Shown here piece by piece: positions 19,470-38,964 of a stretch of DNA of 64,000 bases. Position 1 is the first letter of the stretch; every line of letters starts with the position of its first letter. Location: contig JAQBVF010000004.1 of the NCBI GenBank assembly GCA_027623675.1, positions 32,001 to 96,000 on the forward strand, given 5' to 3'. This stretch comes from Chloroflexota bacterium. GTDB lineage: Bacteria; Chloroflexota; Dehalococcoidia; Lucifugimonadales; UBA3495. The position numbers were made by a program, and so were the translations under genes. Under the pieces are notes generated by a model. It searched no databases and was not told where the DNA came from. It saw nothing but the letters and a program-made list of their open reading frames with translations.

Positions 19470-19474
19470 CCGGC

Positions 19475-19684: not shown

Positions 19685-19720
19685 AGCGTGTTACCTCCTG
19701 ATGGCGGTCAGATGTGGAAG

Positions 19721-19760
19721 CCAAAAAAAAGAACGGACCCTTCTTAGAGGGTCCGTCCCT
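19721..19760 (-). terminator. Leader terminator/attenuator upstream of terminase operon
   Basis: Minus strand GGACGGACCCT-CTAAGA-AGGGTCCGTTC-TTTTTTTT between promoter and SD. Confidence 0.75.
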
Positions 19761-19769
19761 GTTGGTAAC

Positions 19770-19799
19770 ACGCTAGGGTTCTGCAATCCAGGGTGTCAA
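19770..19799 (-). promoter_or_regulatory. Sigma70-like promoter of terminase-portal operon
   Basis: TTGACA-N18-TAGCGT on the minus strand. Confidence 0.6.
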
Positions 19800-19870
19800 T
19801 CGCCGGCCCGTCATCTCGGGACCGCCGTCTTGGCGTTGCATCACCCCTTACTCGGGGAGATTGGCCGGGA

Positions 19871-20056
19871 TTACGCGGGGTTGTGCTTGTTCAGGACCTC
19901 AGCGACACGAGGGTCGATGCTGCCCAGTTCGACTCCGCCGTCCGCCCTGGCAATGCCGAGGTGGGCGTCGCGCTGAATCTCTTCCCAGTCGGGCTCCAGT
20001 TCGTAGTTGTCCCGAAGCTCGTCAAACATGGCATCAAGGGATTTTTTGTCAAACAT
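19871..20056 (-). CDS. Small acidic hypothetical protein (61 aa)
   Basis: GGAGG SD before MFDKKSLDAMFDEL; host-like codon usage. Confidence 0.65.
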   Translation of the reverse strand: MFDKKSLDAMFDELRDNYELEPDWEEIQRDAHLGIARADGGVELGSIDPRVAEVLNKHNPA

Positions 20057-20315
20057 GATTTTCGGTGTCCTCCACTTGGTTTGTCGGCCGGTCATGGTCT
20101 GTACTTTAACTCGAGCAGACCCTCCAACAGCGGGCAAGTCCGACGTACAGTCTCTTTAGGGCCATATTGTGGCTGTTTCCAGCATAAACCATGCAGGCTG
20201 CAGCGAGGCCTAGTCTACAATTTTTCAATCAGCCTGGCAAGTGTCGATTCAGCCTCAATGAAACCGGGAATAGTCACGGTGGAACCGGGCTTGCCGGTCC
20301 GTGTGTCGATCAGGT

Positions 20316-20564
20316 CTATGGAACACGTTTTTCCGGTTTGACCTGGCCGCTGGTTGCGGCCTCCTCCGAGCGTCTCTTGCCCTGCAGCAAGTAGGCCGCG
20401 ACTATGAATAGGGGGATCGCAATGATGACCAGCCCCATCAGGGCGACCACAACCCACGGTCCTGTCCCAAAGAGCGAGTCCAACTTGGTTTTGATCCAGT
20501 GGACCAATTCCGGGTCGGCGGCGTCGCCTTGGTGGGCCAGGATAAAGGTGAAGAAGTGGACCAT
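20316..20564 (-). CDS. Small single-pass membrane protein
   Basis: Hydrophobic segment WVVVALMGLVIIAIPLFIVAAYLL; follows the MFS gene. Confidence 0.6.
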   Translation of the reverse strand: MVHFFTFILAHQGDAADPELVHWIKTKLDSLFGTGPWVVVALMGLVIIAIPLFIVAAYLLQGKRRSEEAATSGQVKPEKRVP

Positions 20565-20599
20565 CAGGACAAGACCATCACAGAGAAGGCATGAGGGGG

Positions 20600-21907
20600 T
20601 TAGTCCCCGGCAGCGGGCGCGGCTTCGACCGGTTTCTGGTAGCGTGCCGAGTATTTACGCTCTTTGATGGTGAACGCCGACAAGGCGGCCGGGAACAGGA
20701 GCGCCCCGACGATGGCGAAAGGCAGGGTATAGGAGCCAGTGACGTCGAAGAGCAGTCCGGCTAGCAGCACGCTGCTGAATCCGCCGATCTGGTGAAACAT
20801 GAACGTGATCCCGGAGATGGTCCCCAGGGCCTTGAGTCCGTACACGTCTGCCGTGAGAGAGGAGGTTAAGGGCAGGGTGGCGACCCAAGAGAATCCGGCC
20901 ACGCTGGCAAAGATCCACAGTCCGATGACTGAATCGATGGTCAAAAGCAGGATATAGGCCGTGCCCCGCATGAGATAGACCAAAGCCAACCAGTTCTTGG
21001 TGCCGCCGATCTTGTCGGCGAGCAAGCCGGCGCCCAGGGCTCCGATGATATTAAGGCCCATCATGTAGCCGAATATGGTGGCCGCGGTGCTCCCGGAGAT
21101 TCCCCGGTCTTCCATTGCGAAGGGTATGAAATGCACCGATAACACGAAAGTGGTGGTACCACAGACGAAATACGAGCCGGCCATCTGCCAGATGGGAGCA
21201 GACTTGAAGGACTGACGCCAATTCTCCACTTCCAGCGGTCCGGTGACTTCGCGGCGGGGCGCGCCCGCGGCGTCGGTCGGCGGCTCCGGGTCGCCGTCCG
21301 GGTAGAGTCCTTTCTTCGACGGCCGTTCGTGGATGAATAGATAGGCCAGGGGCAAGGAGAGCAGCACCACGATGCCCAAGCCAACCCATGCCGTGCGCCA
21401 GTTGGTGGCCTGGAGTAGGTACATGGAGAAGGGCACCATGATCATGCCACCCAAAGAGAGGGCAGCGGAGTTGATGCTGATGGCGGTGGCGCGCCGGCGC
21501 TTGAACCACCGCGACATCAACGCGGCGGTGTTGGACAGCGCCGGGCCGCTCTGCGCCATGGAGGCGACCACGCCGAACATGAATGCCAGGAACAAGATGT
21601 GGAAGGTCAAGGCCAGCATGGCAGTGGCGCCGCCCAGGACCATCAGGCTGATCAGGATCAGCTTGCGGCCACCGGTGCGGTCGAATATCTGGCCCATGAA
21701 AGGCTGGCTGAGGCCGTTGACCAGCACACCCAGAGCAGCGGCGATGGAGATGGTGAAGCGGTTCCAGCCGAATTCGTCGCTCATGGGTACCACGAAAACG
21801 CCGAAACTGTTGCGCGCTCCGATGGCCACAAACCCGATGAATACCGTGGCGGCGCAAACGTACCAGCCGTAGTAGGTGGGTTTCTTAGTTTTTTCGGTGT
21901 GTTGCAT
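20600..21907 (-). CDS. MFS transporter
   Basis: YYGW start, G.IFDRTGGR, WF.RRRA, G.LADKIG motifs, about 12 hydrophobic segments. Confidence 0.93.
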   Translation of the reverse strand: MQHTEKTKKPTYYGWYVCAATVFIGFVAIGARNSFGVFVVPMSDEFGWNRFTISIAAALGVLVNGLSQPFMGQIFDRTGGRKLILISLMVLGGATAMLALTFHILFLAFMFGVVASMAQSGPALSNTAALMSRWFKRRRATAISINSAALSLGGMIMVPFSMYLLQATNWRTAWVGLGIVVLLSLPLAYLFIHERPSKKGLYPDGDPEPPTDAAGAPRREVTGPLEVENWRQSFKSAPIWQMAGSYFVCGTTTFVLSVHFIPFAMEDRGISGSTAATIFGYMMGLNIIGALGAGLLADKIGGTKNWLALVYLMRGTAYILLLTIDSVIGLWIFASVAGFSWVATLPLTSSLTADVYGLKALGTISGITFMFHQIGGFSSVLLAGLLFDVTGSYTLPFAIVGALLFPAALSAFTIKERKYSARYQKPVEAAPAAGD

Positions 21908-22051
21908 CAGATATCAGACGTATTACGCCCCGAATCTGGCTAAGTCCTGGGTCAATCGCACGATGACCATCCAATGATATCACCATACCGGCGATGAATA
22001 GCAATGAAATTCGCGAATCTTGGATGCCGGGGAGAAGGGAGTGCTTGCCGG

Positions 22052-22888
22052 TCAGGTGGTCAGCCAATCACAGAACGCGTCAGCCGTGCCGGTCCCGCTG
22101 ATGGCCCTTAGCCGGCCATCGGCCAATAACTGCGCTGGTTTGAGCCGTCCCCAGACCAGGAGTGCCAGCGCTTCAGCGTCGCAAGCGAGGGTCGCAGTTG
22201 GTTCGCCCTGGGCTTCCTCAACCCTGGTCTCCTCTCGCCCCGCGGTAACGTCCCGCTGGAGATCGGCGGCGCCGGTGGTCTTGATCCGGTATCGGGCGGG
22301 CGTCGTTGCGGGCCGGAACCCGGCCAGGCCCAGGCTGTTTAGCCACACCGGCAGCCGGTCCAGTACCGGGGCCACGCAATCAGGCGTAAGGCCGGCTTTG
22401 GGGTCGGATGGGAAGCGGATGTCCCAGGAGTGAATCACCACTTCGCTGATGCGGGTCGTCACGTAGGCCGAGGCCGGCTGGAGTTGTCTCAGGCCCCAGC
22501 ATTCCTTGCGCCAGTCGGAATCCTCCATGATGGAAAATATGCCTTCCAGACGGTCGACGCTTGAATAAAATGCGTCTACCAGGTCGCTGTCAGCGGCGCT
22601 GCTGTATCCCTTGGCCACGCGGGCGATGAAATCTGGCAGCACGGTCAGGGGCATGGACCCGATCTCCGGCAAGCCCTCGGGGGCGGAGGTGACGCCGGCC
22701 CGGCCTTGGGCGATTGCGTCGGCGAAGAACTCGGCGGCCCAGCCCAGGTGGCCGATAACATCGCCAACGGTCCAACCTTCGCAGGGGCTGGCCAAGCCCC
22801 ATTCGTTCGAGGTGGTTCCCTGGAGGTATTCCTTGAGACGGCCGGTCTCGGCCGCAATGAGTTTTACCCCTTCCGCGGTCGAGACCAT
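22052..22888 (-). CDS. Maleylpyruvate isomerase-like (MDMPI_N/DinB superfamily) protein
   Basis: SPCEGWTVGDVIGHL and EVVIHSWDI motifs. Confidence 0.85.
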   Translation of the reverse strand: MVSTAEGVKLIAAETGRLKEYLQGTTSNEWGLASPCEGWTVGDVIGHLGWAAEFFADAIAQGRAGVTSAPEGLPEIGSMPLTVLPDFIARVAKGYSSAADSDLVDAFYSSVDRLEGIFSIMEDSDWRKECWGLRQLQPASAYVTTRISEVVIHSWDIRFPSDPKAGLTPDCVAPVLDRLPVWLNSLGLAGFRPATTPARYRIKTTGAADLQRDVTAGREETRVEEAQGEPTATLACDAEALALLVWGRLKPAQLLADGRLRAISGTGTADAFCDWLTT

Positions 22889-23074
22889 ATCACTCCTATC
22901 TGGCCATCGGCTGGATACAACTTAGCTGCCTAGCGAACAATCATGGTGAGCGTGTTGCATGACCTTTCCGCAGAATCGGTGCCTCGACAGGTCCACCATG
23001 AGCGGGGCGGACAGCAGTCACCATGACTGGTTGCGCAGCTAGGCGTCAGGAAGCTATGTCGGGCTAAGCCCCGG

Positions 23075-24571
23075 CTAAGCCCCCCGCAGCGCCTTGGCGT
23101 CCTGTCCGGCGCTCGTGCCCGACAGCTTGCCGAAGACCATGCCGGCCGACAGTCCGGAGCCGCCGGGGTAATTGTGATAGAACAGGCCGCCGACCATCTC
23201 ACCGGCGGCGTAGAGGCCGGGGATGGGCTCCTGGCTGTTGGTAACGACGCGGCCACGGTTGTCGATCTTGACGCCGCCGAACGTAAAGCTGATGCCGCAA
23301 GTTACGGCGTAGCCGGTGTAGGGCGGGGTGTCGATGAGCTCGGCCCAATTGCTCTTCGGCGGGGTGATGCCCACCGTGTTCCGGCCGTCTTTGATGGTCG
23401 GGTTATAGGGGATATCCGTTTGCACCGCTGCGTTGTACTCCTCGATGGTCTTCACGAATCCGGCTGGGTCGATGTCCAGCCGCTCGGCCAGTTCCTCCAG
23501 GGTATCGGCCCTGGCCATGGTCACCTGGTCGATGTGGTATTCGTCGCGCAGCAGGTGCTTAACCTTGTCGTCAAAGATGTGGAAGCCCAGGCCTTGGGGC
23601 TGGGTAAGGTAGGCCCGGCCAAATTTTACGTAGGTGTAGTTGCGGAAGTCCTCGCCCTCGTCCAGGAAGCGCTCGCCGTTGATGTTCACGATCAGGCCGA
23701 AGGGGTAGGAATGCTTCTGGTAAAGCTCGGTGATGGTGCGGTCGCCGAACGCCGGGGCGTTCATGTCCCAGGCCACGGCGTGGCAGCTACTGTAATGGCC
23801 GTGGGACTGGGCGCCAATGTCCAGCGCCATCTTTATTCCGTCGCCGGTGTTGTAGGGGATACCCCGGACCTTCACGTTCTCCCAGCCGGGGCCAAGGTAA
23901 CGGCAGCGCATCTCCGCGTTGGCCTCGAAGCCGCCGGCAGCCAGTACCACCGCGCCCGCGGAGATATCCTCAAATCCGTCCGGCCCCAGGACCGTCAACC
24001 CGCTGACCCGGCCCTTTTGGTCCTGAATCAATTTCTTGGCTTCGGTGGAGTAGCGCACGTCGATGCCCATCTCGGCGCAGACGTCGAACTGTTGGTCGGA
24101 CAGGCCCTTGCCGGCTCCGACAGCCTCGACCAGGAGACCGCCCCAGAATCGGTACTTGTCGCCGTCTTTGAATGCCTGCCGTCCGTAGGCCAGGACGAAC
24201 CGGACTCCCTTGGACTGCAGCCACTGCATGGTTGGCAGCGACTGGCTGACCAGTATCTGGGCCAGCTCGGGGTCGGTGAGCCCCTGGGTTACGCGCATCA
24301 TGTCGTCGTAGAACTGGTTCTCGGTGTAGCTGCCAACTTCGATCTGGTTGACCTCGGTCTCCGACATGTCGGGAATGACCGTTCGGATGTCGTCCAGACC
24401 CTCAAAGGCGAAGCGGATGATCCCGCCGGTGAAGTAGGTGTTGCCGCCCCGGAAATATTCTGGAGCTTTCTCCACGACCAGGACCCGGTCGGTGTTCTCC
24501 TTAGCGGCGATGGCCGCGGACAGGGCCGCGTTTCCGGCGCCGACTACAATCACGTCATAATGTTCTGCCAC
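23075..24571 (-). CDS. tcuA: FAD-dependent tricarballylate dehydrogenase TcuA-like
   Basis: VVGAGNAA, RGGNT.FTGG, AAGGFEAN, NTGDGI, TFGG, AGEMVGGLFYHNYPGGSGL. Confidence 0.85.
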   Translation of the reverse strand: MAEHYDVIVVGAGNAALSAAIAAKENTDRVLVVEKAPEYFRGGNTYFTGGIIRFAFEGLDDIRTVIPDMSETEVNQIEVGSYTENQFYDDMMRVTQGLTDPELAQILVSQSLPTMQWLQSKGVRFVLAYGRQAFKDGDKYRFWGGLLVEAVGAGKGLSDQQFDVCAEMGIDVRYSTEAKKLIQDQKGRVSGLTVLGPDGFEDISAGAVVLAAGGFEANAEMRCRYLGPGWENVKVRGIPYNTGDGIKMALDIGAQSHGHYSSCHAVAWDMNAPAFGDRTITELYQKHSYPFGLIVNINGERFLDEGEDFRNYTYVKFGRAYLTQPQGLGFHIFDDKVKHLLRDEYHIDQVTMARADTLEELAERLDIDPAGFVKTIEEYNAAVQTDIPYNPTIKDGRNTVGITPPKSNWAELIDTPPYTGYAVTCGISFTFGGVKIDNRGRVVTNSQEPIPGLYAAGEMVGGLFYHNYPGGSGLSAGMVFGKLSGTSAGQDAKALRGA

Positions 24572-24711
24572 TGGGGACCTCCTAGGGGGTTCGATAATCG
24601 GGTAATTGGGTTTGATAAAGGGATTTTTCGATATTGGGTTTCAGCCTTTTTAGCGTGCACTATAATAGTCTGTCGAACATAAAGTCACAAGATATCGAGG
24701 GGAGAACGGTC

Positions 24712-25266
24712 ATGGACCGGTGCGCTTGGGCAGACAACGAGCTGATGACTGCTTACCACGACCAAGAGTGGGGAGTGCCGCTGCACGACGACCGTAAGTT
24801 GTTCGAGTTCCTAATCTTGGAGGGCGCTCAGGCGGGTCTCAGTTGGAACACCATCTTGCAGAAGCGGGAGACCTACCGGGCCGCCTTCGATAACTTTGAA
24901 CCCAAGATTATCGCCGGGTACGGAGACGCCAAAGTGCAGGAGTTGTTGGCCGACCCGGGCATCGTCCGCAACCGGCTCAAGATCGCCTCGGCCATCGGCA
25001 ACGCCAAGGCCTATCTGGCGGTGGTTGGGGAATTCGGCAGCTTCGATGCTTATGTGTGGGGATTCGTCGGAGGCCAGCCAAAAGCCGACGACCGGGTATC
25101 CATGTCAGAAGTCCCAGCCAAGACCGCCGATTCCGACGCCATGAGCAGGGATATGAAGGGCCGCGGGTTCAAGTTCGTCGGCTCTACCATCTGTTACGCC
25201 TTCATGCAGGCCACCGGCATGGTAAACGACCATACCGTTGATTGCTTCAGGCGTGGGCAAGTGTAG
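24712..25266 (+). CDS. tag: DNA-3-methyladenine glycosylase I
   Basis: RCAW, YHDQEWGVP, LEGAQAGLSW, IVRNRLKI, FVGSTICYAFMQA.GMVNDH. Confidence 0.96.
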   Translation: MDRCAWADNELMTAYHDQEWGVPLHDDRKLFEFLILEGAQAGLSWNTILQKRETYRAAFDNFEPKIIAGYGDAKVQELLADPGIVRNRLKIASAIGNAKAYLAVVGEFGSFDAYVWGFVGGQPKADDRVSMSEVPAKTADSDAMSRDMKGRGFKFVGSTICYAFMQATGMVNDHTVDCFRRGQV

Positions 25267-25367
25267 GTTGCCGCCGCAGTGCGCCCGGTTTAAGATACAC
25301 GCGGCCCAAGAGTTAACCGTTAACTTAACGGCCAACTTACGACCACATAATAGGGGGATTCGCCAGC

Positions 25368-26339
25368 ATGAGAGCTGCGAGACTTGTCGGACCCAAACTC
25401 TTTGAATTCGTGGATGCCGAAACGCCGGTGGCCAACGACGGCCAGGTCCTGATCAAACTGGAGCGCGTGTCGGTCTGCGGCAGCGACTGCCGTCACGGGT
25501 TCAATATCCATCCCGAAGAAGAATATCCCATGGACGTCGGCCGGCCCTGCCACGAACTGGCCGGGGTTATCGTCGAGAGCCGTACCGATGAATACCAAGA
25601 GGGTCAACGGGTGATTGCCATCCCGGAGCGGGGCTCCGGCGGGCTGGTGGAATACATGACGTCCGACCCCAGCCGGATGATTCTGCTGCCCGATGAAGGG
25701 CCATTGGACGAATGGGTGATGTGCCAGCCCTCGGGCACGGTACTCTACTCCTGCCAGCAGATGCCGAACATTCTGGGCAAGAACGTTTTGATCCTGGGAC
25801 AGGGGAGCATCGGACTCAGCTTCTCAATGATCACCTCGCGGATGGGGGCCTCCAGCGTCACCGTGGTCGACCCGCTGGACTACCGGCTCAACAAGTCCCG
25901 GGACCTGTTCGGGTCTACCCACCAGATCAACCCCAACAAAGAGAACCTGGATGAAGCCGTTCTGGAGATCACCGGCGGGGTCGGCCCCGACGTGGTGGTT
26001 GAGGCCGCCGGCTATCCCAACACGTTCAACGATTGCTTCCGGCTGGTGCGTCAATTCGGCACCATCATCATATTCGGCGTCCAGGCCGACGACTTCGTGC
26101 CCATCGAGCATAGCTGGATCATGGACAAGCAACCCCGCATGATCGGCACCACCGGCGCCCGCAGCGGAGACCCCACCTCCCAGATCAAACACATGGTGGC
26201 CCTCAGGCAGCGGGGCTGGTGCGACCCTGCCAATCTGATCACTCACCGCATGGGCTTTACAGACGTTCAAAAAGCCTACGACATGTATGATCAACAGCAG
26301 GACGAAATCGTTAAAGTGGTGATAAACATCAACGAATAG
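25368..26339 (+). CDS. Zinc-binding medium-chain dehydrogenase
   Basis: VCGSD, CHE (for the usual GHE), GQGSIG Rossmann motif; lacks the structural 4-Cys Zn lobe. Confidence 0.88.
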   Translation: MRAARLVGPKLFEFVDAETPVANDGQVLIKLERVSVCGSDCRHGFNIHPEEEYPMDVGRPCHELAGVIVESRTDEYQEGQRVIAIPERGSGGLVEYMTSDPSRMILLPDEGPLDEWVMCQPSGTVLYSCQQMPNILGKNVLILGQGSIGLSFSMITSRMGASSVTVVDPLDYRLNKSRDLFGSTHQINPNKENLDEAVLEITGGVGPDVVVEAAGYPNTFNDCFRLVRQFGTIIIFGVQADDFVPIEHSWIMDKQPRMIGTTGARSGDPTSQIKHMVALRQRGWCDPANLITHRMGFTDVQKAYDMYDQQQDEIVKVVININE

Positions 26340-26429
26340 TCTATCGCCCGGCTCCCCCGGTGTTATTTGGCGGTACGACCGGGTAGCGTGGGCCAGAAAA
26401 GTGGGCCAGAAGTGTAGTGAAGAGGTGTT

Positions 26430-27452
26430 GTGATGGTGAAGCCGGCTTTCGAGATAAAGATGGTCAGGGAGAATCTGGACCTGTCCATGGCCCTGTTGCA
26501 GGCGGTCGGAGAAGAAAAGGTGACCGCCAAACAGCTATTTAGGAACGGCCCTGATGATATGTTCGTCGCTTTCGCGGTGGATAATCAGGGGCCCAGCCAG
26601 ATCGAATTGACGCGGCGCGCAGCCAATCAGACTCGCGCCGCGTTTGCGTTAGCCGTGATACAGACCCAACGCAGTTTGGACCGGGTCTTCAAAACCCCAC
26701 CCATCCCTGAAAATTCCTCTGGAAAAACCTTCGAAGACCACCCCGAAGTGAACCCCGACCTACAGGCGGCGCGGTGTGTGATGTTCCTACTGAACAACAC
26801 TGTGGCGCCCAACCTGTTCAGCCCGGTCTGGAACTGCCCGCCCCAGTACCGGCGTCAGTTCGAGGTGCGGCCAATCAGCCTGCTGTTGGACGCCGAACTG
26901 CTCCACGGCAAGGCGCTCAGTTGGGACCATGTGGGAGGCTTGCACCAATTCCTCGATCTGCTGGTGTATTTCGCCAACTGTATCGAAGACCTGCCTGAGC
27001 TCGAGAAACCGGCCGGCGCGGCGTCACCCACACCGGCCAGAAATATCGAAGAGGCGGTCATCGAGCGACGGGATGGTTCCGTCGGCCCAGCTTCAGATTC
27101 AGAGCGGCAGCAAGAGACACTGGCCACGCCACCGCCTGCCGCCGCCGTCGACGCCGCCGTGGCGCGATTCGTTGCCGAGCGGTGCAAGTTGGGCAGCCAG
27201 AATCTGGTCATCGCCAAAGACCTGTACGCCGATTTCCAGGAGTGGTGCCGGGGATCCGGATTGGACGACGTTTCGCAACGCAGCTTTGGTATGCAACTCA
27301 CGGCGATGGGCTTGCAGCGCCGCCGCCGTGGCCGGGGCAAGCACTGGTGGGACGGCATCCGGCTGTCCGGCCAGGTGAAGCCGGAACTTGAGGAAGAGCT
27401 TGAAACGGCGAACGGCCGCTACGGTGGTTTTCAGCCTGAATTGACCACCTAG
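26430..27452 (+). CDS. Hypothetical protein with C-terminal D5/P4-primase-like winged-helix domain
   Basis: VARFVAERC...LYADFQEWC...SQRSFG..L...G....R.....WDGIRL pattern typical of phage/plasmid primase C-termini. Confidence 0.7.
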   Translation: MMVKPAFEIKMVRENLDLSMALLQAVGEEKVTAKQLFRNGPDDMFVAFAVDNQGPSQIELTRRAANQTRAAFALAVIQTQRSLDRVFKTPPIPENSSGKTFEDHPEVNPDLQAARCVMFLLNNTVAPNLFSPVWNCPPQYRRQFEVRPISLLLDAELLHGKALSWDHVGGLHQFLDLLVYFANCIEDLPELEKPAGAASPTPARNIEEAVIERRDGSVGPASDSERQQETLATPPPAAAVDAAVARFVAERCKLGSQNLVIAKDLYADFQEWCRGSGLDDVSQRSFGMQLTAMGLQRRRRGRGKHWWDGIRLSGQVKPELEEELETANGRYGGFQPELTT

Positions 27453-27522
27453 GTCTCGGAAAAACACCGAAACACCGAAACGCCCGCTAGCCTTGGGAAC
27501 TCCGAGGCTGGCTTTCGCCCAG

Positions 27523-27678
27523 TCAACAGCCCGGTTGGCCGAGATTGCCGCAGCAGCCCTTCCGGGTCCGAAGTTTGGTGAAGGTGTTGGCCACAACCAG
27601 CCGCAGCTTTCGCCAGATAGGCATGGGCTGCTTAAAGTTATCCCAGGGTTGAAAGGTCCGTTGGTCTCGACCGCACAT
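27523..27678 (-). CDS. Unannotated 51-aa Cys-rich microprotein
   Basis: MCGRDQRTFQPWDNFKQPMPIWRKLRLVVANTFTKLRTRKGCCGNLGQPGC-TGA; TG-N-CATAAT 9 nt before ATG; below the ORF track cutoff. Confidence 0.6.
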   Translation of the reverse strand: MCGRDQRTFQPWDNFKQPMPIWRKLRLVVANTFTKLRTRKGCCGNLGQPGC

Positions 27679-27735
27679 GATTGCCGGATTATGACAGTCG
27701 GGTAGAATACGGGCAACCTGGACCAGGAGCCTGCC

Positions 27736-29106: not shown

Positions 29107-29128
29107 GGGCAGCGGGGCGGTCCTGGGA

Positions 29129-29848: not shown

Positions 29849-29851
29849 CCC

Positions 29852-30583: not shown

Positions 30584-30587
30584 GGAC

Positions 30588-31007
30588 TTAGCTGCCCCCG
30601 TGGTATTCGGCGTATTGGTTCACCGACTCCCAGAGCCGGACCTTGGCCGGAGTGATGCCGCATAGTTCCACCGTCTTCTCGTACAACTCCCGGCTCATTA
30701 CCTCGCAAGACGGGTTCTGGTCTTGGAACTGGTAAAGCCGCACCAGGCTCGTGTTGGCGAGCCCGGCGATGAGTTCGCTGTCTCTGCTATTCACCAAGAA
30801 GGCGTGGTCCCAATTCTCGTCCACCCACGATTTGACCCGGTCCTTGAGGCTGGTGAAATCGTAGACCAGGCCCAGGCTGTTCAAGACCGGCGACTCCAAG
30901 AAGACTTCGGCCCGGTAGGTGTGGCCGTGGGGGTAGGCGCATTTGCCTTGATAGTCCAACAGGCGGTGGCCGCTGTCAAAGGTGAATTCGATTCGTATCT
31001 GGTACAT
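30588..31007 (-). CDS. queD: 6-carboxytetrahydropterin synthase QueD
   Basis: FDSGHRL..Y.GKC..PHGHTY, DF, WDH, NPSCE, LWES. Confidence 0.93.
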   Translation of the reverse strand: MYQIRIEFTFDSGHRLLDYQGKCAYPHGHTYRAEVFLESPVLNSLGLVYDFTSLKDRVKSWVDENWDHAFLVNSRDSELIAGLANTSLVRLYQFQDQNPSCEVMSRELYEKTVELCGITPAKVRLWESVNQYAEYHGGS

Positions 31008-31037
31008 AGATCGGGGGTGGGGTCTCAACCGCGAGGG

Positions 31038-31472
31038 TTATTTGCTGTCTTTGGCGCGGTTATATTCCACGGTCACCGCGGTATGCAATCCGCCACGGAC
31101 CTTGTAGTCCAGGGTGATCTTCATGGATTGGGGCTGGCAGACGGCCACCAGGTCGTTGAGTATGCGGTTGGCGGCATGCTCCTGGACGATGCCCACGTCC
31201 CGGTAGGACAGCAGGTAGAACTTCAGCGATTTCAGCTCGATGCAGGAATCGCTGGGGACGTAGAAGATGCGCAGGTCACCGTAGTCGGGCAGTCCGGTCC
31301 ACGGGCATACGGCGGTGAATTCGTCGGTGTCTATCTCAACCTGGGACTGCTGGTCGGGGTATTCGTACCGGAAGGTGAGCAGGCATTCGGGGTTGATCGC
31401 CTCCTCCCCCTTGGCCGGCAGCTCCTGGTCCAAGCCTTGGTACTGTTCTTTCAAATCTCTGATGGTTGCCAT
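31038..31472 (-). CDS. queF: preQ1 synthase (nitrile reductase QueF, type I)
   Basis: EFTAVCPWTGLPDYG, ELKSLKFYLLSYR, EH, VRGG; GGAGG SD. Confidence 0.95.
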   Translation of the reverse strand: MATIRDLKEQYQGLDQELPAKGEEAINPECLLTFRYEYPDQQSQVEIDTDEFTAVCPWTGLPDYGDLRIFYVPSDSCIELKSLKFYLLSYRDVGIVQEHAANRILNDLVAVCQPQSMKITLDYKVRGGLHTAVTVEYNRAKDSK

Positions 31473-31537
31473 GCGCGCCTCCGTGGTGCCGTCCCGTTGG
31501 GTATCGTTCGCTTGATGTTCGCCGGGGCCTGGCAATA

Positions 31538-31567
31538 ATGATAGGTGGCTAGGCTGAGGGGTGTCAA
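31538..31567 (-). promoter_or_regulatory. Sigma70-like promoter of que operon
   Basis: TTGACA-N18-TATCAT on the minus strand. Confidence 0.6.
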
Positions 31568-31644
31568 AGCGTGTTGCGCGGTCCGGTGGCCGGAGATAAG
31601 ATACGGGCACCCTGGTTGGAGTCCGGTTGGGAGAGCATATCGCC

Positions 31645-32175
31645 ATGGCTCAAGCAGGCCTCGAAGCCCATTCGTTGAAAGGTTTGGACGCCATGTCCAT
31701 AGAGCAGGCACAGACGCTGTCTTTCCAAGAACGAGATGCACTGCTGGACCTGATCATCGCCGATGGCCGCCACGACGCCACCGGGGCGGTCTCCTACCGC
31801 TCGGGCATGTACACCGATTACTTCGAGGAAGACCTGACCCGGATGCTCAAGGTGAAGGCGGTCAAGGTCTACGTGCGGGGCACCACCTCCTCTAACTTCG
31901 ACGGACAGGTGGTCGGCGTGACCTTCATGGAGCAGTACCGGGCCTGTTTCCGGCACGTGGAGACCACGCTTGCGGCGGCCAGGACCAACTTTAGCCGCGT
32001 GGTCAATATGGTGGTCTTCCTGACGAACATAGATAATTGGGCCAAGTTCAACGAAGTGTTCCGCGAGTTCGTGCCCAACCCGCCCTGCCGAGCCGTGATT
32101 GGCGCCACCGGACTGGCCCAAAAGGCCATCGCCATCGAGATAGTCGACTGTTTCGCCTACCGGGTGGCGGACTAA
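31645..32175 (+). CDS. RidA/YjgF family protein with N-terminal extension
   Basis: EQYRACF..V...L...VVFLT...FNEVF.EF....PPCR..IG...L....IEI; start uncertain. Confidence 0.8.
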   Translation: MAQAGLEAHSLKGLDAMSIEQAQTLSFQERDALLDLIIADGRHDATGAVSYRSGMYTDYFEEDLTRMLKVKAVKVYVRGTTSSNFDGQVVGVTFMEQYRACFRHVETTLAAARTNFSRVVNMVVFLTNIDNWAKFNEVFREFVPNPPCRAVIGATGLAQKAIAIEIVDCFAYRVAD

Positions 32176-32262
32176 GTATTACCTGGTTTAACCTAAAACC
32201 GCTGCGCCTGCTGGGCGGCGGACCAGGCGCTTTCGAGAATCGAAACTGGATTGGAGGCAGAC

Positions 32263-32700
32263 ATGGCTAACCTGACATTGGCCTATAAAGTGCGCGGCTA
32301 CAGCACCGGCAACCTGGGCCGGGCCATCTGCAACGCCCGGACCCATCATTTTGTCGCTGACGATGGCGGCGGCGATGAAGTCGGCGCCGGCGAGTTCTTC
32401 TTCTCGGGCATCTCGGCCTGCGCGGTGAACATGGTGGAGCGCATCGCCGATCGAGACAAGATCGCCTTGGACTGGATGGACGTCAGCGTGGAGTCCTACC
32501 GCGACTCGGATGCCGACCACGGCGACCTGTCGCTCTACGACGCCATCCGGATCAAGTTCGAGATGTGGGGCGTGGACGACGAGGACGCCCAAAATCTGGT
32601 GGAGACCTGGAAAAAGCGTTGACCGCTTTACGGTTCGGTCGCCGTGGCGACTGCTGACACCACCGTGGAACTGGTCCACCATAGTGAAAAATATCGGTAG
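32263..32700 (+). CDS. OsmC/Ohr-like protein, predicted selenoprotein (U120)
   Basis: GISAC first Cys; in-frame TGA at 32620-32622 in KKR-U-PLYGSV, where the family has a C-P motif; frame continues to TAG 32700; SECIS-like hairpin follows. Confidence 0.85.
32623..32670 (+). promoter_or_regulatory. Bacterial SECIS-like element (OsmC-like gene)
   Basis: GTCGC-CGTG-GCGAC apical hairpin with GU at +22/+23; lower stem TTTACGGT/ACCGTGGA. Confidence 0.65.
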
Positions 32701-32783
32701 CTCATCCGGCCGGCGGTTGGCCGCCGGCAGCCAATAGCTAATTGCCAACCAAACGGCTGATGCCTGTCAGTCAGAGAGGATAT

Positions 32784-33719
32784 ATGCGAATCTGCTCTTT
32801 CCTGCCCAGCTCCACCGAGATGGTGTACGACCTAGGTCTCCAGGACCAACTGTACGGCGTGACCCATGAGTGCGACTACCCCCCCGAGGCGCGGAACAAA
32901 CCGCATGTGGTCCATAGCGTCTTCGAAGGCCAGGAGCCGACCAGCGGCGAGATCAGCAAGGTCATCTCCGAGCGTTTGGCCCAGGGCTTGGGCATCTATG
33001 AGATAGACACCAGATTGCTGCAGGAAGCCGAACCGGACCTGCTAATAACTCAAGCCATCTGCGAGGTTTGAGCAATCTCGTCTCGGCAGGTGGCCGAGGT
33101 TAGCATCGGACTGGCAAAGCAACCGGAGATCTTATCGTTGGACCCGCTTCATATCGGCGACGTCGTTGAAGACCTCAACCGCCTTGGACGCGCCACGGGC
33201 ACCGAGGCCAAGGCGGCGGAAATCACCGCCGGACTCACCGCCCGGATCGAAGCGGTGACCCTGCGGGCCAAGGACGCCGACAAGCATCCCAGCGTGCTCC
33301 ACGTGGAATGGGCGGAGCCGGTGATGTGTGGTGGCCATTGGGTGCCCGAGATGACCGAGTTGGCCGGCGGGACCAACAGTTTCGGCGACAAAGACACCGG
33401 GACGCTGAAGCTGGATTGGGACGAGGTATTGGCCAGCCAGCCTGAGGTCATCATCATGATGCCCTGCGGCTTCGACGTTAAGCGCGGCCTGGAAGATGTG
33501 CCGCTGATGGCCGCGAAAGAGGGTTGGGCGTCGCTGCCGGCAGTGAGGAACAACCGTGTCTACGTGGTTGACGCCGGGGCCTACACCAGCCGCTCCGGCC
33601 CAAGGCTGGTAACCGGCTTGGAGATCATGGCTGAGATGATTCACCCCGAACTGTTCTCGGGCATGATTCCGGAGGGGGCGGCGCTGCGTCTCTTCGGTGA
33701 CCTGGCCAAGACGAGCTAG
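32784..33719 (+). CDS. BtuF/TroA-like cobalamin/Fe-siderophore-binding fold protein, predicted selenoprotein (CxxU, U96)
   Basis: MRICSFLPSSTE, GVTHECDYP, TQAICEV-TGA-AIS (family pattern TQxxCxVCA), GHWVPEM, MPCGF, SRSGPRL; both track ORFs share one frame. Confidence 0.88.
33072..33104 (+). promoter_or_regulatory. Bacterial SECIS-like element (BtuF-like gene)
   Basis: TCTCGGC-AGGTG-GCCGAGG hairpin, loop GU at +19/+20 after TGA. Confidence 0.65.
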
Positions 33720-33756
33720 TTCATCGGCGGTCCCTGGCCGACGGCCGCAAGAATCG

Positions 33757-34428
33757 TTAATTAAGGCGCGGCCCTTGAAACGGGTTCTGCTTGGTGACGC
33801 GCTCCCGCAGTGCCTCGTTGCCCTGCCGTAGCAGGGGTATCAGGTCCGACAGGCGGGTGGCTGCCGTCTCGGTCACCAACAGGCTCTGACGCAGGTGTGT
33901 CTCCAGTTCCAGGTTGGCGGCGATGGCGTAGGACAATTCGATGGGGTCTTCCGGGATGGCGACCCTTGATGTGTACCCGCCGGTGAGCGCGGTCAGGTTA
34001 CGGACCAGTGCCACGTACTCGTCGTTGACCTGGGGCACGAGATCGGCACATCCCTCGCCTGCCAACTCCACCAGATACCGCACCCGACCAACGATATGCG
34101 GCACACGCTGGACAATCTCCTCGATCTCGAAACGCCTCTGGCCCTTGGTCAGGATGTTCATGCGCCCCTGGTCCAATAGCTCGGAACTGAGTATCCGGGT
34201 AGACGTGCCGATGCGTTCCGGCTCGGCCGGCGAGCCGACCTCCAGACCTTCCTTGATCAACACGACTCCGAAAGGCGCATCATCTCTGAGGCACTCCCCA
34301 ATCATGTTCTGGTAGCGCTCTTCAAAGATGTGGAGCGGCAGGTCCTGGCCCGGAAACAGCACCAGGTTCAATGGGAATAGTGGGAGGTCGGTCAATCCGT
34401 CTCGGGACTCTGGCTCACGTTGTTCCAT
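33757..34428 (-). CDS. Stand-alone Lon protease N-terminal substrate-binding domain protein
   Basis: LPLFPL.LVLFPG..LPLHIFEERY...FGVVLI..G.EVG. Confidence 0.92.
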   Translation of the reverse strand: MEQREPESRDGLTDLPLFPLNLVLFPGQDLPLHIFEERYQNMIGECLRDDAPFGVVLIKEGLEVGSPAEPERIGTSTRILSSELLDQGRMNILTKGQRRFEIEEIVQRVPHIVGRVRYLVELAGEGCADLVPQVNDEYVALVRNLTALTGGYTSRVAIPEDPIELSYAIAANLELETHLRQSLLVTETAATRLSDLIPLLRQGNEALRERVTKQNPFQGPRLN

Positions 34429-34471
34429 AACTCTTCGAGTATATTACCTGCGTTCGCGCCAGAACAAGATT

Positions 34472-34819
34472 CTAGCGTCGGTTCTTGGCTCCACGGACCC
34501 TGAAACCGGTGGGACCTTTCTGATGGCGGGCCCACCGCAGAAAATTGGCGACATCGGCGTCGGCCCGCAGCGCATCGATGGAATTCAACTCTTTGGCCAA
34601 TGTGGACTCGGAGAACATGGCGTGGATTTGCCGGTGACACGTGGGGCAGAGCCTGGCTTGAGGGCCGAACCTGCCGCCCCGCGACCGGGGAACCAGGTGA
34701 TGAGTGGTGAACCGCGGCGATTCCCGGCGGCATAACTCGCATACCTGACGATTATGCGCTGGCCGCGTTTGCTCCGTGACCTCGGTCTGTACCGAATCGG
34801 CGGAGTTTCGCCGCGCCAT
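34472..34819 (-). CDS. Small HNH endonuclease-like protein
   Basis: CELC...TTHHLVPRSRGG...LCPTCHRQIH. Confidence 0.85.
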   Translation of the reverse strand: MARRNSADSVQTEVTEQTRPAHNRQVCELCRRESPRFTTHHLVPRSRGGRFGPQARLCPTCHRQIHAMFSESTLAKELNSIDALRADADVANFLRWARHQKGPTGFRVRGAKNRR

Positions 34820-34822
34820 GTA

Positions 34823-35308
34823 TCAGGATTTGTCCGGCACTTCCAGGAAGCGCCATCCCGGAAGGTCAACCTGCCAGTCCTCGTCCTCCCACAACATGGG
34901 AAGGATCAGGCCGTTCATGGCCCGCCCGTGTTCAACCTCGGTGGTGTCGCTCTCCATCCCGAAGGGAAGAAAGGCGAAGGCGTGGATATCGTCCAGATAG
35001 CTGGTGGGCGAGATCCCCAGGTCCGTCAGGTCCTCCAGCGGCCAGAGACTTAAGACAGTCTTCCGAAAGTCGTCCAGCATGGCGGGCCGCAGCGGATGGT
35101 CGTCGTTGTAACCGGCGCGGTAGGCGTCTTGCATATTGATGTGGTTGCGCGTCGCCCACACGCCCATCCGCATGCCGCGAGTCTCCTTGGAGAGCATGGA
35201 CCAGGCCAGGTCCATGTCGCCGTCTCTGACAGCCTCGGCGAAGACCCCGGCCCGGCTGCCGCAGCTATCGGGAAATGGGCTTCGTTTTTCTCCTGGTATG
35301 CGCATCAA
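34823..35308 (-). CDS. Hypothetical protein
   Basis: Co-oriented with ggt and the HNH gene, short gaps, host-like codon usage. Confidence 0.65.
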   Translation of the reverse strand: MMRIPGEKRSPFPDSCGSRAGVFAEAVRDGDMDLAWSMLSKETRGMRMGVWATRNHINMQDAYRAGYNDDHPLRPAMLDDFRKTVLSLWPLEDLTDLGISPTSYLDDIHAFAFLPFGMESDTTEVEHGRAMNGLILPMLWEDEDWQVDLPGWRFLEVPDKS

Positions 35309-35346
35309 TGGTCCTTTGACTTGTTATCGGCAAAAGTGATTGGGGC

Positions 35347-37077
35347 CTACCAACCGACAGCATAGCCGTCGCGGCGGGGGTCGGCGGCGCCGTGCAGGGC
35401 GCCCGTATCCGGGTCAACCTGAATCATCATCTCACTGCCCTGTGCGCCCCAATCGGACATCATGTTCAACCGGTGGCCCCGGCCCTCAAGCCCGGAGCGG
35501 ACACCGGCATCGAACCGGGACTCCATATGCAACAGATTATCACAGACATGGGGAACGTTAGACTCGGTCGGACTGTGGGAATTTCGCCAGCGGGGGGCCT
35601 CCACCGCCTCGGCCACGGTCATGCCAAAGTCGATAAGATGGGTGATCACCTGCATGTTGGTCTGCACCTGGGTGTCCGCGCCAGGGGTGCCGCAAACCAG
35701 CGACAGCCGGCCATCGCCGCCGGCAGCCCCTCCTGCGTTCTCATTGGACGCCGGACCATTGCCTTTGAAGACCATCACCGGGTTCATGGTGTGGCGCACG
35801 CGCTTGCCGGGTTGAAGGCAGTCCACGTGCTCTGGGTCCAAGTGCCAGTAGGTCATGCGGTTGTTCAGCAGTATTCCGGTGTTGCCCGCCACGATGCTGG
35901 ACCCCAGGGAACTCTGGATGCTCTGGAGCTGGCACACCGCGTTGCCCCATCGGTCAACGATCACGAAGCAGGTGGTGTCTTCTTCCTGGACTGCGCCGGT
36001 TGTCACCCGTCCCGCGCTTCCAGAGCCGTTCTGGTAGGCCCAGGGGTCGCCGTGGGCCGGGTCGGCCGCCCGGTTGGGGTCGATGAGCTTGGCCCGCTCC
36101 TTGGCGTACTCCTTGGAGATCAGGCCCTGGGTGGGGACATCGGTGTGGTCCGGGTCGGCCATGTAGGCCTCACGGTCGATGAAAGCCAGCTTCTTGGCTT
36201 CCACCATCAGGTGGATACTCTCTGCTGAGTTGCAGCCCATGGCCTGGAGGTCGTACTGCTCCACCATGTTCAATTCTTGCAGCAACACGTGGCCGCTAGA
36301 GTTGGGCGGCGCTTCGTATACCGTGTGCCCCTTGTAGGTGGTGGAGATTGGTTCCTCCCAACGAGAACGGCAACCCGCCAGGTCTTTCATCGACAGGATG
36401 CCCCCCTGCTCCTGAATGAACCGGACCATCGCCTGGGCAATCTCACCCTCATAGAACGCGTCCCGGCCTCCGTCCACGATGGCCTGGAACGATTTGGCCA
36501 GGTCTTTCTGGTAGATGATCTCTCCCGGCTGGAATGGTTTTCCGTCGTGTGTGAAGATGGCCCGCGATGTGGGAAATTCACACAGCAGAGGGTCGCCGGT
36601 AATCACGCCGGACAAGACGTGCGTCACCGGAAAGCCGTTTTCCGCCAGGTCGATGGCCGGGGCGAACAGCTCGGCCAACTTGAGCGTGGCGTATTTCTCA
36701 TGGGCCGCCATCCAGCCGTCCACCAGTCCTGGCACCGACACCGACATGACCCCCATTTGGGGGATGCCGGTCGCCTGGTAACTTGCCAGGTCGGTGGCGT
36801 ATGGCGCCGCCCCGGTGGCGTTACAGATGTCGATCTTATTCTGGGCTTTGTTGTAGATCATGATGTAGCCGTCGCCGCCGATCCCAGACATATTGGGTTC
36901 GACCACGTTCAGGGCTGCGGCGGTGGCGATGGCGGCGTCAACCGCGTTCCCGCCCTTCTGCAGCACCGACATGCCGGCCTGGGCGGCCAGCGGGTGCCCG
37001 GCGCAAACCATGCCGTTCTTACCCATGACCACGGGCCGGTTGGACTCAAACTTAACGCCGTGGGGTGACTGCACCAT
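35347..37077 (-). CDS. ggt: Gamma-glutamyltransferase family protein
   Basis: GGNAVDAA, SGIGGDG, VPGLVDGW, PPNS, EDTT nucleophile, LNNRM, GTPGAD.Q, AADPRRDG. Confidence 0.93.
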   Translation of the reverse strand: MVQSPHGVKFESNRPVVMGKNGMVCAGHPLAAQAGMSVLQKGGNAVDAAIATAAALNVVEPNMSGIGGDGYIMIYNKAQNKIDICNATGAAPYATDLASYQATGIPQMGVMSVSVPGLVDGWMAAHEKYATLKLAELFAPAIDLAENGFPVTHVLSGVITGDPLLCEFPTSRAIFTHDGKPFQPGEIIYQKDLAKSFQAIVDGGRDAFYEGEIAQAMVRFIQEQGGILSMKDLAGCRSRWEEPISTTYKGHTVYEAPPNSSGHVLLQELNMVEQYDLQAMGCNSAESIHLMVEAKKLAFIDREAYMADPDHTDVPTQGLISKEYAKERAKLIDPNRAADPAHGDPWAYQNGSGSAGRVTTGAVQEEDTTCFVIVDRWGNAVCQLQSIQSSLGSSIVAGNTGILLNNRMTYWHLDPEHVDCLQPGKRVRHTMNPVMVFKGNGPASNENAGGAAGGDGRLSLVCGTPGADTQVQTNMQVITHLIDFGMTVAEAVEAPRWRNSHSPTESNVPHVCDNLLHMESRFDAGVRSGLEGRGHRLNMMSDWGAQGSEMMIQVDPDTGALHGAADPRRDGYAVGW

Positions 37078-37244
37078 GATGATGGTCTCCTAGAAGTACT
37101 CCCCTCTCTCATGGCAGAGGGGGTGGATGGGTGTAGCGATTTCGCAGGCAGGGATGGCGATCCAGCGCGTCCCAGCGAGTCAATGAAAAATGGGCCTCAG
37201 AATTCTGAAGCCCATCTTGGTCTCTTTAGTTGTGGTTGCTGTGC

Positions 37245-37619
37245 CTAGTGGCTGCCGCAACCGCCGCTGCCGCAACCGCAGCCCCCGCCGCCGCTGCCAC
37301 AGCCGCATCCGCTGCCGCAACCGCCAGAGCTGGCGAACATGGGGTTGTTAATCACGAAGCCCACCTGGCCGCCCAGGTTCTCCACGTAATCGATCGTCGC
37401 CTCTTCCAGGAAGGGCGCGCTGTCTGAGTCCATGAGGAAGTTGACTCCCTCTTTGGCCAAGACCGTGTCGTCAGCCTGGGTCTCGGTCTCCATGGTCAGC
37501 ATATATTGAAGTCCGCCCGTTTCAGCGGGAATGGCGACCACCCGCAGCGAACCATCAGTTTCACCCTGTTCGTGCATGACTTCCTTGAGCTTCTCGATGG
37601 CGAGGGTTGTTACTTCCAT
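37245..37619 (-). CDS. HesB/IscA/ErpA-like Fe-S carrier with Cys/Gly-rich tail
   Basis: LRV, Y.L, D.DS...L....IDY......GF.INNP; tail GGCGSGCGCGSGGGGCGCGSGGCGSH. Confidence 0.85.
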   Translation of the reverse strand: MEVTTLAIEKLKEVMHEQGETDGSLRVVAIPAETGGLQYMLTMETETQADDTVLAKEGVNFLMDSDSAPFLEEATIDYVENLGGQVGFVINNPMFASSGGCGSGCGCGSGGGGCGCGSGGCGSH

Positions 37620-37815
37620 TTCCTGTTCTCCTTGGGAACTTTCCGGGAGACCGTCTGGCGATCGACGCCATTTAATCTCTAGGTGTTAAAGCTAACACAG
37701 ACGGAAATGTCCAGTCAACGCCGGGACGGGTCTGGCAGAGCCACTCTGATCGATCATTCTAAGTGCCCTCAGGGTGAGGCACGGCGCGTCGGGACACAAA
37801 CGTGTCAGACCCGCG

Positions 37816-37845
37816 TTGACACTCTGTAAAGCGCGTTTCTACACT
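37816..37845 (+). promoter_or_regulatory. Sigma70-like promoter of protease-capsid operon
   Basis: TTGACA-N18-TACACT. Confidence 0.65.
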
Positions 37846-37921
37846 CAATCTCAGCAGCTTAGACCACATACCGCACAGGCGTCCGGACTTTGGTCCGGAG
37901 ACAGGATCTTGGCAGTTTTCC

Positions 37922-37960
37922 AAGGGGACCGACCCTTAAGGGTCGGTCCCCTTTTTTTGG
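37922..37960 (+). terminator. Leader terminator/attenuator upstream of protease-capsid operon
   Basis: GGGGACCGACCC-TTAA-GGGTCGGTCCCC-TTTTTTT, about 50 nt before the start codon. Confidence 0.8.
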
Positions 37961-38010
37961 ACCACCACGCATCAGATTAATGAAATTGATTATTGATTTA
38001 AGGAGGGGAA

Positions 38011-38838: not shown

Positions 38839-38964
38839 CCTGAGCTGCTTAGACGAAACGACAGCCAAAGGGATAGACGCACAGAGCATGTGACCCCATC
38901 GCACGACACACGGGCGGTCCACCCTCGGCCCTGGCGGGCAATCAAATCAAACTAGGAGTTGACC

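Follow-up and report, generated by a model that had tools for sequence, protein, structure and literature searches.

A conserved promoter-hairpin-T-run module precedes dispersed virion operons of Dehalococcoidia and may gate them through antitermination

The window studied here, 64,000 nucleotides (nt) of a Chloroflexota bacterium of the class Dehalococcoidia (assembly GCA_027623675.1, contig JAQBVF010000004.1, positions 32,001 to 96,000), carries two separate operons of phage-type virion genes. Operon A, on the minus strand, encodes a zinc-ribbon protein (ZnR), the terminase large subunit (terL) and a portal protein; operon B, on the plus strand, encodes a prohead protease and a major capsid protein. 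Each is preceded by a leader, A or B, in which a promoter is followed by a hairpin and a run of T. We find that this promoter-hairpin-T-run module is a real, conserved and specific cis-element: its anatomy recurs, it is restricted to virion genes, it is conserved upstream of orthologues, and its stem covaries in a manner that preserves pairing. From its sequence we infer a function in antitermination. Specifically, we propose, with a probability of around 0.5, that a sequence-specific promoter-proximal intrinsic terminator gates dispersed virion operons and that read-through needs a factor recognising the hairpin. Coordinates are window positions. G000 denotes the focal assembly (3.07 Mb, 48 contigs, 91% complete), other G-numbers denote related genomes, and L-numbers denote stretches of such genomes with coordinates of their own.

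Promoter A (19770-19799, minus strand) has a -35 hexamer TTGACA at 19799-19794 and, after an 18-nt spacer, a -10 hexamer TAGCGT at 19775-19770. Hairpin A begins 10 nt past the -10 hexamer and hence near the presumed 5' end of the transcript. It occupies 19760-19729 on the same strand, forms 13 pairs with the arm AGGGACGGACCC, and reads in order AGGGACGGACCC-TCTAAGAA-GGGTCCGTTCTT; eight T (19730-19723) and GG complete the element, which ends at 19721. The ribosome-binding site of leader A is AGGAGG at 19699-19694, again on the minus strand. Promoter B (37816-37845, plus strand) consists of TTGACA at 37816-37821, an 18-nt spacer and TACACT at 37840-37845. Hairpin B lies about 76 nt past the -10 hexamer, at 37922-37953 on the plus strand, and has 14 pairs, the arm GGGGACCGACCC and a TTAA loop (AAGGGGACCGACCC-TTAA-GGGTCGGTCCCCTT in order). 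Seven T (37952-37958) and GG follow, to 37960, and then GGAGG at 38002-38006 and the ATG at 38011. Both leaders read as an earlier note on this DNA had described them, and each has a TTGACA-N18-TAnnnT promoter, a GGGAC-N-GACC hairpin and a T-run. Both hairpins sit, as it stated, between a conserved promoter and the ribosome-binding site, and the C-G/G-C swap in the middle of the stem between hairpins A and B is real. Three further details that it listed, a TAA-containing loop, the GG after the T-run and the motif CATCAG, are not conserved in orthologues. A CCAA...TTGG extension of the stem, present in both G000 leaders, was also considered as a conserved part and rejected, as orthologues do not keep it.

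A consensus scan for promoters and terminator-like sites across 19000-38500 gave hairpins A and B as the strongest of 14 terminator-like sites, a total that is not above the shuffled expectation of 15.7. Promoter B was picked up by the scan with 10 of 12 positions. Promoter A was not listed by it, and its -10 hexamer agrees with TATAAT at only three of six positions. The fold energies are -23.7 kcal/mol for hairpin A (z -4.05) and -31.9 kcal/mol for hairpin B (z -5.92), and none of 200 shuffles folded as well as either. At both hairpins the opposite strand lacks a T-run. The two elements have the features of intrinsic terminators, namely a stable G+C-rich stem-loop and, confined to the transcribed strand, a U-run adjoining the stem. 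Contigs from two sequencing runs, X1 and X2, break independently inside the hairpin B palindrome at 37928-37930, and short contigs of 53-61 nt span the hairpin; the breaks are an effect of the inverted repeat on assembly and mark no biological joint.

The full hairpin pattern occurs at only two sites in the 3.07-Mb assembly, A and B. A covariance model, R1, built from an alignment of 24 orthologous hairpins (A1), scores them at 55.2 and 55.0 bits respectively. The next sites in the whole genome reach 26.2 and 25.9 bits and are ordinary terminators after stop codons, without the GGGAC-N-GACC arm. As the earlier note had supposed, the motif is specific to phage-derived operons and is not a genome-wide repeat. 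Arm sharing between the two hairpins is not unique within the genome: 173 terminator-like sites form 14,878 pairs, 11 of which share at least 10 of 11 arm bases, and the chance for a pair named in advance is about 7e-4. The comparative data carry more weight than this within-genome null. Within the genus, promoters A and B also have a spacer motif in common, TTGACAC-YYTGKAWWRC. In G000 the extended -35/spacer motif is found at these two promoters and at one further match without a correctly spaced -10 hexamer. Outside the family this motif is lost, while the hairpin persists.

Conservation was followed in a panel of 41 related genomes, 19 of which are other members of the genus. Promoter hexamers, 18-nt spacing, hairpin and T-run are all kept upstream of orthologues. 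The hexamers and spacing of promoter A are present in 12 of 16 terL-upstream stretches. Of 15 stretches upstream of protease genes, 14 contain the promoter B type; its spacer measures 18 nt in 13 of these and 17 nt in the other. R1 matches 23 of the 41 genomes and 17 of the 19 genus members, and the positive genomes mostly have exactly one A-type and one B-type site. An evenly drawn, order-wide sample of 151 genomes, searched at E <= 1e-5 with stricter filters, gave 17 genomes with R1 matches. In addition, a capsid-alignment search of reference genomes returned 165 stretches, the best 80 of which were used as capsid loci; every one of these 80 has a title naming Dehalococcoidia, Chloroflexota/Chloroflexi or SAR202, and their identity is at least 69%. 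A sense-strand R1 match lies ahead of the protease gene in 59 of the 80. A pattern requiring a GGGAC arm, no fewer than 9 of 10 pairs and a T-rich tail with at least five T in the next 10 nt detected a hairpin with T-run in 70, one of which appears to be spurious, leaving 69 that are convincing. With four loci found by R1 only, the count becomes 73 of 80, and one locus has no upstream DNA. The T-run is kept in the 70 pattern-positive loci, with at least five T in the next 10 nt, and in orthologues it is often interrupted. The expectation of the earlier note that orthologues would carry the motif is therefore borne out in 17 of 19 genus members and about 73 of 80 capsid loci.

A scan with the covariance model, set beforehand as the test for a regulon, was positive: matches in other genomes lie ahead of genes for major tail proteins, a portal and distant terminases. 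Outside the genus, three genomes (G126, G150 and G085) have the promoter-hairpin-T-run module in front of terL genes of 34-35% identity, and G133 has it in front of a portal gene. The module also precedes major tail protein genes in G082 and G058 (phrog_10528, E 2.5e-33 and 4e-32) and, judged by sequence similarity, in G035 and G109. In G028 both leaders carry the module, and so does a separate small-terminase-terL fragment. This second terminase copy was considered as an intact prophage and rejected, since it is an isolated fragment among host genes. The hairpin starts 7-10 nt past the -10 hexamer in the compact modules and in all A-type leaders, and 16-126 nt past it in B-type leaders. In viral contigs the hairpin pattern was found in 35 stretches, seven of which also have a promoter and T-run. 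All seven are contigs of at most 11 kb; six have the look of a host B-type leader, and the seventh is a compact module. No complete phage with several module copies was seen among the hairpin-pattern matches in viral contigs. In G126, two module copies (L261 and L263) precede a similar open reading frame (ORF) of 47-55 amino acids (aa) beginning MHKTT, and then host genes, that of L261 being a DHDPS-family gene; these two modules may be remnants of lost operons.

The hairpin alignments show strong preservation of pairing. Pairing extends to 97.0% of cells in A1, whose mid-stem pair is AU in 10 sequences, GC in 10 and CG in three. A wider alignment, A3, contains 76 distinct rows fitted to the model and has 96.3% of cells paired. 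Its first covarying central pair is AU in 43 rows, GC in 21, UA in four, CG in three, GU in three and UG in two, and its second is GC in 53 and CG in 19. The covariation score was reached by none of 500 shuffles, and sliding the partners by 1-3 columns in A3 left only 36-56% paired. Four stem pairs are invariant in the 76 rows, with capsid identity as low as 69%. As a consensus the hairpin reads (A)GGGAC-NN-ACC ... GGU-NN-GUCCC(U) followed by a U-run, and the base of the stem is fixed in sequence well past the requirement for pairing.

A palindrome this close to perfect, whose outer half-site bases GGGAC / GTCCC are fixed and which lies just downstream of the promoter in the compact modules, could also be a duplex site for a dimeric repressor that blocks polymerase just past the promoter. 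We consider this operator very improbable. Loop length varies between 4 nt and about 90 nt (leader A of G037, leader B of G028) with the arms intact, a change in half-site distance that a DNA-binding dimer would not tolerate. The central positions vary freely yet covary to keep pairing, the G-U pairs present function on the sense strand only, and the T-run is on one strand only. The covariation, the sense-only G-U pairs and the variable loop together point to a structure selected as RNA, with a sequence-specific stem base, rather than to a double-stranded operator.

No conserved promoter was found in orthologues between the T-run and the ribosome-binding site, a stretch that varies in length and sequence. 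The only conserved promoter lies upstream of the hairpin, so transcripts of the operon must cross it. RNAalifold applied to 10 leader B sequences returned the terminator helix only and no competing fold. With no conserved competing structure upstream of hairpin B, alternative folding of the riboswitch type is unlikely.

In the antitermination model, polymerase starting at the sigma-70-type promoter would stop at the hairpin by default and the operons would be silent. A trans-acting factor would then recognise the conserved stem sequence in the nascent RNA and suppress termination at all loci simultaneously. The gated operons would be ZnR-terminase-portal, protease-capsid-connectors and, elsewhere, portal or major tail protein operons, and the module would be their common 5' control element, all belonging to one old, vertically inherited phage-derived element found in Dehalococcoidia (SAR202 and relatives). 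Ordinary terminators of the same genome differ, yet the stem base is fixed at several loci across the class, and for this reason we think that a trans-acting factor reads the stem.

A plain attenuator or insulator is a serious rival, above all at locus A, although on balance we regard it as unlikely. The hairpin would then be a leaky ordinary terminator without a dedicated factor, shielding the cell from harmful read-through into virion genes, ending the transcript of an upstream gene and keeping expression from the operon's own promoter low, with regulation at the promoter, for instance by a repressor. The upstream gene in question is orf88 (19871-20137, minus strand; conserved 61-aa core at 19871-20056), which is co-directional with leader A. 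Downstream of orf88, no terminator comes before hairpin A. In G009, hairpin A survives beside orf88 in the absence of ZnR, terL, portal and the downstream operon. In G024, where orf88 faces away from operon A, the gene has a terminator of its own that also starts with GGGAC (GGGACGGGTT...AACCCGTCCC; L089 3573-3596, minus strand). The frequently interrupted T-runs fit leaky termination, and an insulating terminator is described for Tn916 (PMC11658703). What an ordinary terminator need not do is keep the same stem base at two or more loci throughout the class, and the 173 other sites of the genome differ. Furthermore, locus B has no co-directional upstream gene to insulate, HesB being divergent, and a promoter upstream of the terminator obliges the operon's own transcripts to pass it.

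In favour of this rival, repression at the promoter is suggested for some elements by a GAAC-N4-GTTC dyad, which with at most one mismatch abuts the -10 hexamer in 18 of 98 leader rows compared (three loci entered twice), the 18 being from other genomes than G000. The dyad resembles the Gram-positive-type LexA box. The rows are mostly compact modules and G028-type B leaders, with spacers in L159, L161, L168, L081, L242 and L252-L264, and the dyad is perfect in the G028-type B leaders. The promoters of G000 have no good box, promoter A having four mismatches to GAAC-N4-GTTC. The B promoters of the genus have at least two mismatches and form a GAAA-N5-TTTC dyad instead. Near-boxes also lie upstream of lexA in G126 and G000.

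The position of the hairpin, essentially at the presumed +1 in A-type leaders and compact modules, brings in a post-transcriptional 5' RNA element as a further explanation. Stem-loops at the 5' terminus are known to stabilise mRNAs. The hairpin might protect the mRNA from 5'-end-dependent decay, or it might be where a protein such as a double-strand RNase or translational regulator binds or processes the mRNA; the U-run would be secondary. A sequence-specific stem fits recognition by a protein. The B-type hairpins, at 16-126 nt from the -10 hexamer, are not 5'-terminal, however, and the U-run after the stem is conserved where a stabiliser needs none. We judge this explanation improbable. Less credible still, in our view, is that the leaders are genes for small trans-acting RNAs of about 40 nt at A and about 110 nt at B, with the downstream genes expressed in some other way. 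A promoter followed by a terminator is indeed the anatomy of a small-RNA gene, and the leaders can be likened to the short promoter-proximal RNAs of lambdoid phages. No Rfam family (release 15) was matched at its gathering score, and the weak sub-threshold matches are all to terminator-ended small RNAs, the best permissive match reaching 33.9 bits against a gathering score of 80. In the leaders, however, the conserved part is the terminator stem only: the rest of leader B varies, leader A contains little else, and the downstream genes have no other conserved promoter.

Several points weigh against gating by antitermination. Transcription start sites, termination itself, short terminated RNAs, read-through and the existence of the factor are all things that we infer. 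Family scans of the genes on either side of both operons turned up no antiterminator; these scans did not extend to the whole genome. No conserved gene was found upstream of promoter B in the 80 loci, where spurious ORFs of the GC-rich DNA made ORF clustering noisy. In 21 of 76 rows, one of the stem pairs is the non-canonical A.C. The pair counts of A3 are inflated by fitting to the model and by 18 rows that are reverse-strand reads of the palindrome, and related genomes are non-independent observations. Part of the conservation of hairpin A may serve orf88, as its retention in G009 without the operon suggests. The leaders of G017, which stand without terL, portal and capsid, may only reflect recent deletions. 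Finally, the conservation of the stem is not explained by the closest precedents, whose antiterminators need no particular terminator sequence.

These precedents are phage-derived particles governed by terminator read-through, for which GafZ (PMC11150451) and BrrG (bioRxiv 10.1101/2024.11.20.624540) are described. In the Bartonella gene transfer agent, the Q21-like BrrG links loci that differ in origin, according to the same preprint. Lambdoid Q proteins (lambda Q, PMC9388147; Q21 and Q82) and BrrG resemble the proposed system in having a strong promoter with a close intrinsic terminator that keeps virion genes off until it is bypassed. Q, however, loads at promoter DNA and a -10-like pause element and ignores the sequence of the terminator, whereas here the terminator stem is the most conserved non-coding feature and is reused. 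No Q-like gene was seen adjoining either operon in family scans; the whole genome was not searched.

The GafYZ system of the Caulobacter gene transfer agent (PMC11150451) is likewise a domesticated particle system with dispersed loci whose structural cluster needs passage of a terminator. A promoter-spacer element is proposed there for factor loading, and promoters A and B have their genus-level spacer motif. In Caulobacter, however, the terminator comes after the first gene, with three GC-rich repeats of 150 bp, and GafZ has one target promoter, whereas here a short hairpin of conserved sequence precedes the first gene of each operon. Relatives of GafY or GafZ did not turn up in the family scans of neighbouring genes, and no search was made beyond those. 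The analogy to lambda Q and GafZ in the earlier note is therefore loose. A terminator does intervene between promoter and structural genes, but the known factors load at promoter DNA and act without regard to terminator sequence, while the stem base here is invariant.

Two other kinds of system are closer in their use of RNA. The boxB hairpin of lambda N/nut and the put hairpins of HK022 are short, conserved, promoter-proximal RNA hairpins, present once per operon and read by a factor or by polymerase, as the module hairpin would be. They are not terminators, have no U-run after them and act on terminators further downstream, whereas the module hairpin itself has the anatomy of a terminator with a U-run. 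LicT and SacY with their RAT hairpin (PMC5393181) offer a sequence-specific leader RNA that decides between termination and read-through. There an antiterminator overlaps the terminator, while the leaders here have no conserved competing structure and, at locus A, no room for one.

If the proposal is right, the module would represent a cis-regulatory RNA motif that is new and not in Rfam release 15, and it would mark every operon of a phage-derived particle system. Antitermination would in this case be keyed to terminator sequence, unlike the described action of Q, GafZ and AlpA. The host class, abundant in the deep ocean and groundwater, is difficult to study by genetics, and the covariance model is a sequence handle for finding dispersed parts of the element in metagenomes. 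Chloroflexota would join the few phyla with gene-transfer-agent-like elements.

We also raise, as a tentative and rather doubtful extension, that Dehalococcoidia, among them the abundant marine SAR202 group, possess an undescribed, domesticated, gene-transfer-agent-like particle system whose scattered head, portal, packaging and tail operons are co-induced, in a new kind of antitermination, by a factor reading the terminator hairpin RNA (GGGAC...GUCCC), unlike the known factors with their loading at promoter DNA, with ZnR as one candidate for the factor, acting in positive feedback. Full-text searches of the literature found no gene-transfer-agent-like element described for SAR202 or Dehalococcoidia. 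ZnR is a 69-aa zinc-ribbon ORF (CRRC...CQEC) and the first gene of operon A, running from TTG 19684 to a stop at 19475 on the minus strand. All four cysteines are invariant in nine of nine orthologues, and zinc-ribbon matches in Pfam were sub-threshold only. Its candidacy is favoured by the fact that it tracks the terminase (24 of the 41 genomes have a ZnR match and 23 a terminase gene), is intact in G017 and lies directly behind hairpin A, which would give positive feedback. On the other hand, it occupies the usual place of the small terminase, and it is absent between the module and terL in G126, G150 and G085. A related double zinc-ribbon protein is encoded elsewhere in four of five genomes of this kind. 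In G085 and G150 (L273 and L275), these proteins have 91-98 aa and lie just upstream of a gene that by eye, from its translation, resembles DNA ligase D.

The virion genes are old, vertically inherited and under purifying selection. The capsid gene was found in 19 of the 41 related genomes. The divergent, split operon layout recurs on single contigs of four of them (G005, G002, G003 and G037), and the 18-kb housekeeping block between the operons is syntenic across the genus. For G000 against G005 or G002, the ratio of nonsynonymous to synonymous substitution rates (dN/dS) is 0.07-0.08 for the capsid, 0.13-0.15 for terL, 0.10-0.13 for the portal, 0.15-0.16 for the protease and 0.12-0.26 for ZnR. 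Neighbouring genes give 0.06-0.18 against G005 and 0.05-0.23 against G002, and their dS is similar. Vertical inheritance under purifying selection in a host chromosomal context is what is expected of a gene-transfer-agent-like element.

In this window the leaders are intact and the structural module is already broken. The prohead protease gene, of the HK97/S78 type (PF04586 E 9e-6; PHROG head-protease/head-protein families; TIGR01543), lies at 38011-38838 on the plus strand. It is followed by a 3'-truncated HK97-type major capsid protein gene of 351 aa at 38959-40014 on the same strand. Homology of the G000 capsid ends at about residue 342 (near 39985), after which come nine unrelated codons and a stop at 40014. 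Capsid orthologues have 443-445 aa, and relatives carry about 100 further capsid codons. The distance from the capsid to the gene for enoyl-CoA hydratase (ECH, start 40147) is about 130 nt in G000 and about 4.2 kb in G002. We read these data as a deletion in G000 at 39985-40147 that took the capsid 3' end together with some 4 kb of connector genes. The capsid-ECH junction is spanned without differences by a contig (39523-40400) of run X2, possibly the source sample, while contigs of relatives in run X3 continue past 39984 with different sequence.

The stretch of G005 that is missing from G000 has five small ORFs without a family match and a 274-aa protein with a match to a head-tail adaptor (phrog_442, E 8.5e-12). 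These connector ORFs and the major tail protein are absent from the whole of G000, with the exception of a 59-residue partial match to the 274-aa protein. G000 thus does not have a complete head, connector and tail set. The adaptor-like protein is present in 74 of 84 loci searched and a tail tube gene in 13 of 84. Two adjoining small ORFs 3' of the G005 capsid (129 and 139 aa; L077 4658-5463) are paralogues with 44-48% identity and were found in 52 of the 84 loci.

Gene loss is common within the genus. G017 has kept both leaders and ZnR and lost terL, portal and capsid. In G002, a DDE transposase gene comes directly after the capsid (L086 10397-11707), an insertion of about 2.8 kb separates leader A from ZnR/terL (L085 5662-8567), and the portal aligns as two overlapping pieces, which suggests a frameshift. 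The earlier note had argued for a maintained regulon rather than decay. For the lineage in the long term this is supported by purifying selection as seen in dN/dS; for G000 itself it is not, with a truncated capsid, deleted connectors and no tail gene. With its capsid gene cut short and its connector genes gone, the G000 system can probably no longer build particles.

The remaining genes of operon A are terL (18120-19472, minus strand; phrog_2 E 7e-40) and the HK97-type portal protein gene (16768-18129, minus strand; PF04860 E 6.6e-70; TIGR01537). The true start of terL is probably ATG 19472, giving 450 aa, and not the listed start at 19598; the listed 492-aa ORF overlaps ZnR in another frame, and distant orthologues align only from about residue 45-53 of it. 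The genes around and between the operons are housekeeping genes, for a prolyl oligopeptidase, a hybrid histidine kinase, an MFS transporter, a gamma-glutamyltransferase, an Fe-S assembly protein, ECH, FtsJ and CinA. Matches to orf88 occur in 30 of 41 genomes, including four (G010, G013, G021 and G023) without a head-gene or hairpin match. Library scans gave no family match for it, and an Atlas look-up gave weak unnamed clusters (best score 0.82). Considered as a dedicated regulator, orf88 was rejected: its presence in genomes without head genes or hairpin marks it as a host gene.

The gene of the hybrid kinase (GAF-PAS-HisKA-HATPase-REC, 13844-16582, minus strand) follows the portal gene on the same strand at a distance of 186 nt, and it is missing from the corresponding place in G002. 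In G017, only its receiver end is left, directly behind ZnR, which suggests a deletion that also took terL and portal. In G024 an insertion of about 2.8 kb interrupts the terminase gene near residue 185-227 (L089 4460-8829). The terminase copy of G028 has about 90 extra residues at about 270-278, where the matches of G001 and G006 stop (L081 15967-17529), and the terminase gene may be a hot spot for insertions.

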